A DNA stretch of 38,454 bases, taken from Candidatus Micrarchaeota archaeon. Its GTDB lineage: Archaea; Micrarchaeota; Micrarchaeia; Micrarchaeales; CABMGC01. The notes beneath the pieces were generated by a model that did no database searches, was not told the DNA's origin, and saw nothing but the letters and a program-made list of their open reading frames with translations. The stretch covers positions 1 to 38,454 of the forward strand of contig JAGDYD010000017.1 of the NCBI GenBank assembly GCA_023256515.1, read 5' to 3'. This document shows, piece by piece, positions 1,148 through 6,035 of the stretch. Numbering within the stretch: the first letter of the stretch is position 1; the number at the start of each line of letters is the position of its first letter. Made by a program: the position numbers and the translations under genes.

Positions 1148-2216
1148 TGCTTTTCGCGGCAAATCGACTCCAGTCGATGCTGCTGGAGGGCACTGCTATC
1201 AGATTTCGACAGCCATGCAAGTTCGCCCAACGGCTTCGTTGAGCGGCGTACGGCTCAGTAACGCGTAGTCAACCTAATGTAAGGAGGGGGATAACCTCGG
1301 GAAACTGAGGATAATACCCCATAGGCTAGGGATCCTGGAAGGGGCCTTAGCCGAAAGGTACGCAAATTGCAGCGCAACCACCTTACAATGGGACTGCGTC
1401 GGATCAGGCAGATGGCGGGGTAACGGCCCACCATACCTATGACCCGTAGGGGCTATGGAAGTAGGAGCCCCGAGAAGGGCACTGAGACAAGGGCCCTAGC
1501 GCTACGGCGTGCAGCAGGCGCGAAAACTCCACAATGCGCGAAAGCGTGATGGGGGAAGTCTGAGTGATGCACTTCGGTGCATCTTTTGCCAAGTATAGCA
1601 AGCTTGGCGAATAAGTGCTGGGTAAGACGGGTGGCAGCCGCCACGGTAATACCCGCGGCACAAGTGGTGTCCACGATTATTGGGCTTAAAGCGTCCGTAG
1701 CCGGTTGGAAAAGTCTCATGTGAAATATAGGTGCTTAACGCCTATGCTTGCACGAGATACTATCCGACTAGGGAGTGGGTGAGGTTGGGAGTACTTATAG
1801 GGGAGGGGTTAAATCCTGTAATCCTATAAGGACTACCGGTGGCGAAGGCGCCCAACCAGAACACATCCGACGGTGAGTGACGAAGGCTAGGAGAACGAAT
1901 CGGATTAGATACCCGAGTAGCCCTAGCAGTAAATTATGCAGACTCTGGTGTTGCACTTGCTATGAGCTGGTGCAGTACCGTAGGGAAACTGTTAAGTCTG
2001 CCGCCTGGGGAGTACGGCCGCAAGGTTGAAACTTAAAGCAATTGGCGGGGGAGCACACAAGGGGTGGATGCTACGGTTTAATTGAATCCAACGTCGGAAA
2101 CATTACCTGGAGCGACGGCAAGATGAAGGTCAGGCTAAAGACCTTACCAGATGAGCCGAGAGGTGGTGCATGGCGATCGTCAGTTCGTGGTGTGAACTGT
2201 CCGGTTAAGTCCGGTA

Positions 2217-2705
2217 AGCAATTGAGTGATGCAATGAAAGCGAAACTAAGCAAAGAATTTTGCTATCTTGCCGGCCTTTCGAGGCTGAGCAAGGAAGAGA
2301 AGTCTAAGGTAAGCGCAAAGAGCGAGATAAAGGAGATAATAGAGAGATTCGTGGAAATAGCAGTAAAGCTCGGCGTAGAGCCGAGGAAGATAGTCGTGGA
2401 AGAGAATGAAACATTTTTCTACCATTCCAAGATAGCTAGACAGATAAGAAAAATAAGGGAAAATGAGATAAAAGTATTCAGGCACAGAAACGAGTTGTCA
2501 TCTAGCTACATAGCTGGCATATTCGATGCGAGAGGGAGCATAAGGTCAAAGAGCGTGGAGATTTCTTCAATGAAGCCAAGCGAGGCGATAATGCTGGAGA
2601 ATCTTGGCATGCATGTAAGGGGAAACAGGATTGCAAACATAAGCGAGTTTATCATGCTTATAAAAGGCTATAGTCTTCGCATAGAGCTCATTCAATTGCC
2701 CGGTA
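2217..2705 (+). other. Archaeal BHB intron in 16S rRNA, 489 nt, inserted near E. coli position 1101/1102
   Basis: CCGG-TAA at 2211-2217 and 2700-2706 gives a 4-bp central helix with two UAA bulges; 12-bp stem 2218-2229/2688-2699; removal restores TTAAGTCCGGTAACGAACGAGACCC. Confidence 0.92.
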
Positions 2706-2725
2706 ACGAACGAGACCCTCGCTGA
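2234..2725 (+). CDS. Intron-encoded degenerate two-motif LAGLIDADG homing-endonuclease-like protein (163 aa from unspliced precursor; no stop inside the intron)
   Basis: YLAGLSRLS and YIAGIFDARG motifs; GTGA plus 4 nt before ATG 2234; first stop is in exon 2. Confidence 0.8.
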   Translation: MKAKLSKEFCYLAGLSRLSKEEKSKVSAKSEIKEIIERFVEIAVKLGVEPRKIVVEENETFFYHSKIARQIRKIRENEIKVFRHRNELSSSYIAGIFDARGSIRSKSVEISSMKPSEAIMLENLGMHVRGNRIANISEFIMLIKGYSLRIELIQLPGNERDPR

Positions 2726-3157
2726 CAGTTGCTACAGGTCTAGCGATAGATCTGGCACTCTGTTGGGACCGCCTCTGTTTAAAGAGGAGGAAGGAGAGGG
2801 CGACGGTACGTCAGTATGCCCCGAATCTCCAGGGCTACACGCGGCATACAAAGGTTGGTACAATGGGTTGCAACTCCGAAAGGAGAAGCTAATCCCCTAA
2901 AACCAACCGAAGTTCGGATTGAGGGCTGGAACTCGCCCTCATGAAGCTGGAATCCCTAGTAATCGCTTGTCACTATCGAGCGGTGAATATGTCCCCGCTC
3001 CTTGCACACACTGCCTGTCAGGTCATCCAAATGGGGTGCTAGTGAGGCGGCATCTTCATGGTGCTGTCGAACTAATATTCCGTGAGGAGGGCCAAGTCAT
3101 AACAAGGTATCCGTAGGGGAACCTGCGGATAGATCACCTCAATTATTAGTGTGCAAA

Positions 3158-5918: not shown

Positions 5919-6035
5919 TGCCAAACGGCCATAGGAGCAGGGTAACGCCCGATCCCTTACCGAACTCGGAAGCTAAGCCTGCTCACGATATGAAATACTG
6001 CCCAATAGGGTGGGAAAGCATATTGCTGTTTGGCA
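5919..6035 (+). rRNA. rrf: 5S rRNA
   Basis: Terminal helix TGCCAAACGGC/GCTGTTTGGCA; GGCCATAG; CCCGATCCC-CCGAAC-CGGAAGCTAAGCC core; 117 nt. Confidence 0.93.

Follow-up and report, generated by a model that had tools for sequence, protein, structure and literature searches.

We analyzed an insert in the 16S rRNA gene of a Candidatus Micrarchaeota archaeon (GenBank assembly GCA_023256515.1, contig JAGDYD010000017.1, positions 1 to 38,454 of the forward strand; this whole 38,454-nucleotide [nt] stretch is referred to below as the window). The reading that we favor, and hold to be probable, is that the insert is a protein-coding bulge-helix-bulge (BHB) intron at Escherichia coli position 1093, that its product is a disarmed LAGLIDADG protein kept by the host, and that the endless frame of the intron, an open reading frame (ORF) that would meet no stop codon anywhere around the circularized RNA, is incidental. 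By this reading, EndA would make one cut in the UAA bulge and the other in the loop that follows the second CCGG; RtcB would then ligate the exons and, to judge by other archaea, close the intron into a circle. Translation would start at a GAGTGAT motif and AUG inside the intron, in a frame that ends only at a TGA in exon 2, and the protein would bind the 16S rDNA or rRNA region of its origin and serve the host. The element is of a known kind, the ORF-bearing BHB rRNA intron; what is unusual is the disarmed nuclease, its phylum-wide retention, and an ORF that is often without a stop of its own. What is new and better supported concerns the intron protein, namely, what it is and where it occurs, rather than the endless frame, which a first-pass annotation of the window had put forward as a candidate for natural rolling-circle translation.

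Sequence-level searches with the intron protein gave faint signals. Pfam returned Hom_end at 20.7 bits (cut-off, 21.1) and LAGLIDADG_3 at 18.7 bits (cut-off, 22.5), a sequence search of the PDB with the single protein recovered no match, and the family profile gave only weak PDB matches (E = 0.015 to 0.32). An AlphaFold model generated with a 68-sequence alignment has a predicted local distance difference test score (pLDDT) of 93.8 and a predicted template modeling score (pTM) of 0.88, with residues 153 to 163 weak (pLDDT, 72 and 52). Foldseek searches with this model reached a probability of 1.00 to I-DmoI, I-Tsp061I, and PI-PfuI (template modeling [TM] score, 0.50 to 0.60); the best PDB fold was I-DmoI (E = 1e-4; TM score, 0.58 to 0.60), followed by I-Tsp061I, PI-PfuI, and E-DreI, with WhiA and the bI3 maturase appearing at ranks 43 to 46. 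As modeled, the protein is composed of two alpha-beta-beta-alpha-beta-beta-alpha domains in a LAGLIDADG fold of the I-DmoI type, and the model and the Foldseek matches agree with the LAGLIDADG assignment made in the first-pass annotation.

The two LAGLIDADG-like motifs of the protein (Table 1) were compared across the family. In the first motif, Y11 and G14 are conserved in at least 90% of the sequences and position 19 is taken by S, N, T, or G, and by E in 2 of 51 intronic copies. The second motif has the family form [LVI]-A-G-x-F-D-x-x-G and aligns in the profile with FDAEG of PI-PfuI and VDGDG of E-DreI, an alignment that puts a non-acidic residue at the place of the catalytic Glu/Asp of both enzymes; among 150 family members, position 100 is occupied by A, N, S, R, C, or K (R in the window), and neither D nor E is among its eight commonest residues. 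The canonical catalytic acidic residues are missing, and, judged from motif positions only, the nuclease appears to be disarmed.

To place the protein in its phylum, we searched it against 401 genomes and fetched the best 150 of about 300 matching places, to which the counts of places below refer. Homologues were present in 294 of the 401 genomes, including 149 of the 188 high-quality ones. In 52 of the 150 places, distributed over 31 genera and five families, the ORF lies inside an insert at the same 16S site, and these make up our intron set. Another 33, out of the 98 non-intronic genes, lie just downstream of the 16S 3' end on the same strand, starting about 100 to 900 nt after it (e.g., L013, L016 to L018, L026, L027, L033, L056, and L057). 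The remaining 65 have no 16S gene in the fetched flank (600 nt in most cases; 1.5 kb for 13, which were rRNA-free by Rfam), a class that is an upper bound given the short flanks. At 12 loci, the 16S alignment continues without interruption through the 1093 site; the 16S gene is intron-less there, and the protein gene is still kept.

The location of the gene is uniform within most genera, and the protein tree recovers the two large families; together these point to mainly vertical inheritance, although on this tree, which is poorly resolved, the gene changed between an intronic and a non-intronic location at least 18 times. Even where it lies outside the 16S gene, it seems to be tied to it. Several non-intronic copies have, by eye, TTTAAAT-like boxes 25 to 30 nt upstream of the ATG, and a Shine-Dalgarno (SD)-like tetramer within 16 nt of the ATG was found in only 27 of the 98 non-intronic copies versus 41 of the 52 intronic ones, which suggests that the non-intronic copies have promoters of their own. 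The gene is not a sporadic selfish element but one inherited mainly vertically and present in most genomes of the phylum, whether inside, after, or away from the 16S gene, and a host function linked to 16S rDNA or rRNA is therefore most likely.

A profile search of a large protein collection recovered 453 proteins; the 120 listed among these were almost all named as Micrarchaeota "hypothetical proteins," and two came from metagenome-assembled genomes with bacterial names that are probably misbinned. One bin of the phylum (G127) carries both an intronic copy (L014, contig C19) and an after-16S copy (L067, contig C18). The latter is almost identical to that of another genome, G372 (branch lengths, 0.007 and 0), and the bin may mix two organisms.

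Reading frames and stops in 52 homologous introns

The frame from the ATG at 2234 has no stop in 2213 to 2699, as the first-pass annotation had noted, and the other two frames have 24 and 8. At the base composition of the intron, 163 random codons would stay open with a probability of 7e-6, so that the frame is that of a real gene; it fills 472 of the 489 nt. The ATG lies 17 nt inside the intron and the TGA lies 17 nt into exon 2. Two further claims of the annotation were borne out in the DNA, namely, that only the unspliced RNA terminates, giving a protein that ends in ...PGNERDPR, and that the circle returns in frame to its ATG: translation of two turns of the 489-nt circle met no stop and reentered via Pro-Gly-Lys-Gln-Leu-Ser-Asp-Ala to Met.

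The endless state of this circle hinges on one base of the CAA codon in the leader, i.e., the segment from the 5' cut up to the ATG. A leader of 17 nt, the modal length and one that gives a multiple of three, is present in 23 of the 52 introns. Since the frame at the 3' junction is fixed among introns without a stop of their own, the length modulo 3 is set by the leader. The leader of the window has stops in both other frames, and a one-base indel in it, or the C-to-T change seen in sister introns, would end the frame of the circle. The GAGTGAT motif is present in 25 of the 52 introns. As separate observations on the same frame, it is also open for 64 codons upstream of the ATG (2042 to 2233), into exon 1, and an open frame of about 220 to 242 residues flagged many of the introns with a length divisible by three, without evident meaning of its own.

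The 52 introns are 489 to 593 nt long, with lengths of 0, 1, and 2 modulo 3 in 24, 18, and 10 of them, respectively. In 24, the intron itself supplies the stop of the ORF, either internally or at its end; 11 of these stop 10 nt before the intron end, 4 stop via a TAA spanning the 3' splice site, and 9 stop further upstream. The other 28 are stop-less; they all share one frame, which meets a TGA or TAA in exon 2, 17 nt past the junction. Of these stop-less introns, 13 have a length divisible by three, and 7 of the 13 would form endless circles; the remaining six have an in-frame TAA or TGA two codons past the junction. Endless circles are thus predicted for 7 of the 52 introns, spread over seven genera (the window, G000, genus g1; L007, G035, g4; L032, G079, g5; L038, G040, g6; L039, G022, g38; L042, G133, g50; and L043, G399, g59), and the other 45 terminate.

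None of the three relatives of the window in the same genus is endless. In G024 (492 nt) and G027 (489 nt), a TAA replaces the CAA, two codons after the junction, and the intron of G225 is 500 nt long. The length modulo 3 varies within five genera, and on the protein tree the seven endless introns require six changes versus a mean of 6.9 with shuffled labels, i.e., they are scattered. The first-pass annotation had proposed that introns at this site be examined for persistence of a length divisible by three and of a stop-free circle. With 24 and 7 of the 52 showing these two states, the proposal fails, and the mixed lengths modulo 3 and internal stops of the homologues speak against an endless frame that is maintained as a feature.

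For an ORF crossing the 3' splice site, the expected rate of endless circles is 1/3 x 0.65, or about 0.22, and 7 of the 28 were observed. Selection for a length divisible by three was considered and rejected: 13 of 28 among the stop-less introns gives a binomial p of 0.10, and 24 of 52 overall gives a p of 0.037 over rows that are related, an excess that shrinks to 17 of 39 once each distinct combination of genus and length is counted a single time. Selection for or against stops in the leader was rejected as well, such stops being present in 6 of 13 introns where they matter versus 21 of 39 elsewhere (Fisher p = 0.75). Endless closure therefore does not exceed chance and is neither conserved nor visibly avoided. 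Because the seven cases are scattered, the congeners are not endless, and the rate matches chance, we regard the endless frame as incidental, most likely a by-product of the modal 17-nt leader, the frame in which the ORF crosses the 3' site and which has its nearest stop in exon 2, and one base in the CAA.

Several other arrangements of stops were seen in the intron set. In L100 (G350) and L101 (G239), a TAG would arise at the junction itself once the circle is ligated, and the DNA reads on to the exon-2 stop. In L034, L037, L046, and L080, the TAA that spans the 3' splice site would be complete on the precursor and on the circle and incomplete on the linear intron. The ATG is followed by an A, giving ATGA with a TGA in the +1 frame, in 45 of the 52 intronic copies versus 44 of the 98 non-intronic copies, a comparison uncorrected for relatedness; in seven of the eight stop-less introns with a length of 2 modulo 3, this TGA would be the stop for a ribosome rounding the circle.

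On which RNA serves as the message, we lean slightly toward an unspliced RNA colinear with the DNA rather than the excised circle, because the junction frames in use all stop nearby in exon 2 or across the junction: each of the 28 stop-less ORFs enters exon 2 in the frame with the stop at +17, four introns use the frame of the junction-spanning TAA, and the frame in which an ORF would extend 192 nt into exon 2 is not used by any intron. This frame argument is a weak one, as the frames are inherited and the lineages are not independent. If read from the circle, most introns would reach a stop 2 to 50 nt past the junction.

The strongest competitor of our reading is that the excised circle is a real message, with rolling-circle translation of 163-residue tandem repeats, useful or tolerated, both here and in the six other genera. 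The geometry of the circle would permit this, as its length is divisible by three, it is stop-free, and it returns to its own SD motif and AUG. The SD-like motif is kept in intronic copies, pointing to internal initiation that would work on a circle, and residues 153 to 163, disordered in the model, would act as a linker between repeats folded as beads, so that tandem repeats of the unit might still fold. There is also no depletion of endless circles among the stop-less introns with a length divisible by three (7 of 13). Archaeal introns are circularized (PMC7714728), and in a review, the Desulfurococcus mobilis 23S intron circle is said to encode or be translated into a 194-amino-acid (aa) endonuclease (PMC11724312). 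Against this stands the fact that the endless state is not conserved, the homologous introns that terminate including all three congeners. The SD-like motif sits inside the 12-base-pair (bp) closing helix, and in contigs from two metatranscriptome runs (X5 and X6; see below), which are weak data, neither a back-splice joint nor an RNA contig on 2248 to 2681 was found. Moreover, a stop-less circle would trap ribosomes, of which cells of this group hold very few, and the lack of selection against endless circles would argue for little translation of the circle. We consider this reading unlikely. The fuller proposal that splicing in at least seven Micrarchaeota genera releases a circle with its own ribosome-binding site and an endless frame that yields rolling-circle LAGLIDADG repeats, while sister introns, different in a single base or a single leader nucleotide, make a monomer, is in our estimate decidedly unlikely.

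Retention of the protein and probable splicing of the intron

The absence of catalytic acidic residues and of an own stop, together with Pfam scores below the cut-off, could also be read as the decay of a selfish homing-endonuclease gene near loss, with no function at all. This is very improbable in view of the state of the protein. Its frame is intact over about 160 codons in the 52 introns and the 98 non-intronic copies, and the window protein aligns without breaks to 149 homologues. F39 and D98 do not vary at all, and at ten further positions at least 90% of the sequences agree, which indicates purifying selection. A decaying gene would not persist across the phylum, yet this one follows the taxonomy in its tree, is carried by most of the genomes searched, and is kept even where the 16S gene is intron-less. 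The tail past residue 152, disordered in the model, is absent from the non-intronic homologues, and any of the C-terminal ends predicted above would hence be expected to give a working protein.

Turning to the intron that would release the protein gene, the archaeal small-subunit rRNA span in the window is 1,976 nt long versus the 1,478 positions of the Rfam model, and the excess is a single insert whose exon flanks rejoin into a conserved 16S segment. CCGGTAA occurs within 2001 to 2900 only at 2211 and 2700, and the spacing of 489 nt (163 codons), recounted in the sequence, is that given by the first-pass annotation, which had also remarked correctly that the intron length does not depend on where in the repeat the cut falls: a cut anywhere in 2211 to 2217 and 2700 to 2706 gives the same circle and the same mature rRNA. 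The exact position within the bulge used for the intron coordinates in Table 1 is one that we take to be the usual one. By the description of the insertion in the cultured Micrarchaeota archaeon ARM-1, the insert site is E. coli 1093, a known archaeal 16S intron site that recurs in Crenarchaeota and Aigarchaeota (PMC4496867).

The minimum-energy fold of 2196 to 2722 has a 4-bp helix (H), a clean 3-nt UAA bulge, and a 12-bp helix (h'). All four pairs of H are formed in each of the 52 homologous introns, and the bulge position reads TAA or TAT in 51 of them. Pairing in h' was found in 506 of 564 cells, whereas shuffling the partners among sequences gave 375 on average and 408 at most, and several Watson-Crick pair types occur at most h' positions. 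The genome encodes EndA as a 395-aa ORF with two tRNA_int_endo matches (contig C17), a size that fits the three-unit enzyme of the phylum; this Micrarchaeota-type EndA is reported to have a broad substrate specificity (PMC3239211 and PMC3488258). RtcB is encoded as well (contig C45; 560 bits). A second RtcB-like frame (G000:C18:5980-6996; L155 and L156) covers model positions 1 to 192 and 291 to 426 in one open frame of 388 residues and may be a shortened paralogue.

RNA from X5 and X6, two small metatranscriptome contig sets of one study from samples other than the DNA samples, provided one contig each that joins 2210 to 2700 and skips 489 nt, with seven ambiguous letters, and the RNA depth was zero across 2248 to 2681 while the exons were covered. 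With the pairing of H and h', the fold, the EndA and RtcB genes, and this exon joint, the archaeal BHB intron of the first-pass annotation stands. It is correspondingly highly improbable that the insert escapes splicing and forms an expansion segment of the mature 16S rRNA, or that it marks a nonfunctional copy of the rRNA gene. That possibility draws on the weak outer helix of the motif and on the ARM-1 account, where splicing of the insertion is called uncertain (PMC8784108); besides the RNA contigs and the two encoded enzymes, what counts against it is that H and h' covary, as expected of a structure in use, and that the insert interrupts a universally conserved 16S segment. A group I intron was rejected as an identity for the insert, since 472 of its 489 nt are ORF and no Rfam ribozyme matched; no Rfam family at all was found on the intron, neither at the gathering score nor at an E of up to 1 over 2190 to 2730. 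Group I introns have been reported in Micrarchaeota at other sites (PMC6125680).

That the length divisible by three is an artefact of an assembly indel within the intron is barely credible: the extra C behind 2223 in a low-depth DNA contig (run X4; depth, 4.1) would fit it, but the X4 contigs differ elsewhere too, as those of a related strain would, the ORF is intact and aligned without frame breaks to its 149 homologues, and a 539-nt DNA contig of run X1 equals 2190 to 2728 without a difference, although X1 is possibly the source sample and hence not independent. An indel of this kind, which the first-pass annotation had named as a hazard, has thus left no sign. X4 comes from an independent hot-spring study, and its contig shows a few further substitutions elsewhere in the intron; the close strain behind it may carry a 490-nt intron with a circle that is not endless.

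A number of points weigh against the favored reading of a host-kept, disarmed LAGLIDADG protein encoded in a spliced BHB intron. With respect to the protein, the Pfam matches are below the curated cut-offs, LAGLIDADG_3 being matched in 11 and Hom_end in 8 of 68 members, and the invariant D98 makes an unusual active site possible, the register of motif 1 having been set by the motif. The counts, drawn from the best 150 matches, under-sample the more distant families, and the class of genes away from the 16S gene is, as mentioned above, an upper bound. As for the intron, an internal loop (AAGU opposite UAACG), instead of a clean 3-nt bulge, holds the 3' splice site, and the outer helix that pairs exon with exon in a canonical BHB cannot be made out, the exon side offering only a 3-bp GUU/AAC helix beyond the loop. 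The motif is for this reason a relaxed BHB, with one canonical half well supported and the other half weak, and cleavage at the 3' site would depend on the broad specificity reported for EndA. The short side of the RNA joint is only 20 letters, and an intron-less relative could yield the same contig. No back-splice joint was found in the contigs of four runs, which drop rare forms, and circularization of the intron is assumed from other archaea.

Two observations concern the rRNA genes at large. Downstream of the 16S gene, from 3275, lies a translation elongation factor 1-alpha-like gene (GHIDHGKST motif, by eye) and no 23S gene, and a 5S rRNA is found at 5921 to 6034; the rRNA genes therefore appear to be unlinked in this genome. 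In L086 (G395), the alignment of the 3' part of the 16S gene (1 to 377) is split in two, with about 137 additional bases close to position 1320 of the spliced window 16S rRNA, and this locus may hold a second, small insert at another 16S site.

Table 1. Features of the 16S rRNA gene, the intron, and its ORF in the window
Feature	Positions	Strand	Remarks
16S rRNA gene hosting the intron	1167..3142	+	Rfam RF01959, 1346.5 bits, model positions 1-1478 of 1478
Helix H, 5' strand (CCGG)	2211..2214	+	central helix; 4 bp with 2700-2703; minimum-energy fold
Bulge TAA (3 nt) holding the 5' splice site	2215..2217	+	unpaired between H and h' in the fold
Intron (489 nt), if each cut follows the second bulge nucleotide	2217..2705	+	repeat spacing; RNA contigs
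Helix h', 5' strand	2218..2229	+	12 bp with 2688-2699; overlaps the ribosome-binding motif
CAA leader codon	2219..2221	+	in-frame TAA here in the two closest relatives, G024 and G027
SD-like GAGTGAT	2224..2230	+	3 nt upstream of the ATG; complementary to 3132-3140, at the 3' end of the 16S
ORF, 163 codons plus TGA	2234..2725	+	last 6 residues and stop in exon 2
First LAGLIDADG-like motif, residues 11-19, Y-L-A-G-L-S-R-L-S	2264..2290	+	non-acidic at the catalytic position; register by motif, not superposition
Second LAGLIDADG motif, residues 93-101, I-A-G-I-F-D-A-R-G	2510..2536	+	Arg at the catalytic position
Helix h', 3' strand	2688..2699	+	also codes for the last structured-to-disordered residues of the protein; covariation and fold
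Helix H, 3' strand (CCGG, 2700-2703), then loop TAACG holding the 3' splice site	2700..2708	+	fold
TGA in exon 2	2723..2725	+	sole stop for the ORF; present on unspliced RNA only

Significance and comparison with known systems

The Micrarchaeota "hypothetical protein" of the 16S insertion can now be described as a protein with a predicted LAGLIDADG fold and without the catalytic residues, found in most genomes of the phylum and linked to the 16S gene. It has the look of a homing endonuclease that was domesticated for a role connected with rRNA or rDNA, in organisms whose genomes are very small. The route by which archaeal rRNA-intron proteins are expressed, whether from the unspliced precursor, the linear intron, or the circle, has been open since the work on D. 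mobilis, and the intron set offers natural contrasts in this regard: endless introns in seven genera, introns with a stop two codons past the junction, introns with a junction-made stop, and introns with an internal stop. Because each route predicts different protein ends across these classes, the route is testable by proteomics. If rolling-circle reading were true, it would be the first cellular prokaryotic case and a natural experiment on archaeal rRNA-intron circles as messages. For genome scans, a stop-free circle with a length divisible by three is expected in about 1 in 4 to 5 intron ORFs that cross the 3' splice site and alone is no signal.

Circles with infinite ORFs that are translated all the way round are described for circEGFR, circNFIB, the 220-nt satellite of rice yellow mottle virus, and engineered circles in E. 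coli (PMC11724312). What they share with the intron of the window is a circle of a length divisible by three with a start and no stop, whereas here the circle is predicted and its translation hypothetical. Our literature search found no report of rolling-circle translation of an archaeal or bacterial cellular RNA.

The nearest relatives are the 16S insertions already described in Micrarchaeota (ARM-1; ARMAN-2, UNLARM2_0643; and Mia14; PMC8784108 and PMC5498576), which come from the same phylum and site and encode a protein of about 160 to 170 residues. The cultured ARM-1 has a 522-bp insertion at E. coli 1093 that encodes a hypothetical protein, and lengths of 519 to 528 nt are common among our 52 introns. 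In that account, the ARM-1 and ARMAN-2 proteins are stated to have no other homology, and their function and the splicing of the insertions are given as uncertain (PMC8784108). Relative to these papers, the present analysis adds the LAGLIDADG fold, a covariation-supported BHB, the phylum-wide gene, and the variable stop usage, and the copy in the window is one of the stop-free circles. A literature search for LAGLIDADG together with Micrarchaeota recovered only a paper on group I introns at other sites (PMC6125680).

The I-DmoI intron of the D. mobilis 23S rRNA gene and the ORF-bearing crenarchaeal BHB introns, which occupy 16S sites including 1093 (e.g., that of I-Tsp061I), likewise have an ORF filling an intron in an rRNA gene. 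I-DmoI, with its monomeric two-domain LAGLIDADG fold, is the best structural match to the window protein, and it is an active endonuclease with D21 and E117. According to the first-pass annotation, circularization supplies the stop codon in that intron, a claim for which no support was found in the literature searched. The window protein differs from I-DmoI in the non-acidic residues at its catalytic places, in its vertical, phylum-wide rather than patchy inheritance, and in that half of its introns lack a stop of their own; the broad distribution, which follows taxonomy, would be unlike that of an active homing element. Stable intron circles have been reported for archaeal rRNA introns such as that of D. 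mobilis (PMC11724312).

The domesticated LAGLIDADG proteins, i.e., the bI3 and I-AniI maturases and WhiA, offer a further parallel, since in these too the fold is under selection without a canonical nuclease site. Unlike WhiA, the window protein has no helix-turn-helix domain, and unlike the maturases, it is encoded in introns of a type that needs none, BHB introns, and its gene persists where there is no intron.

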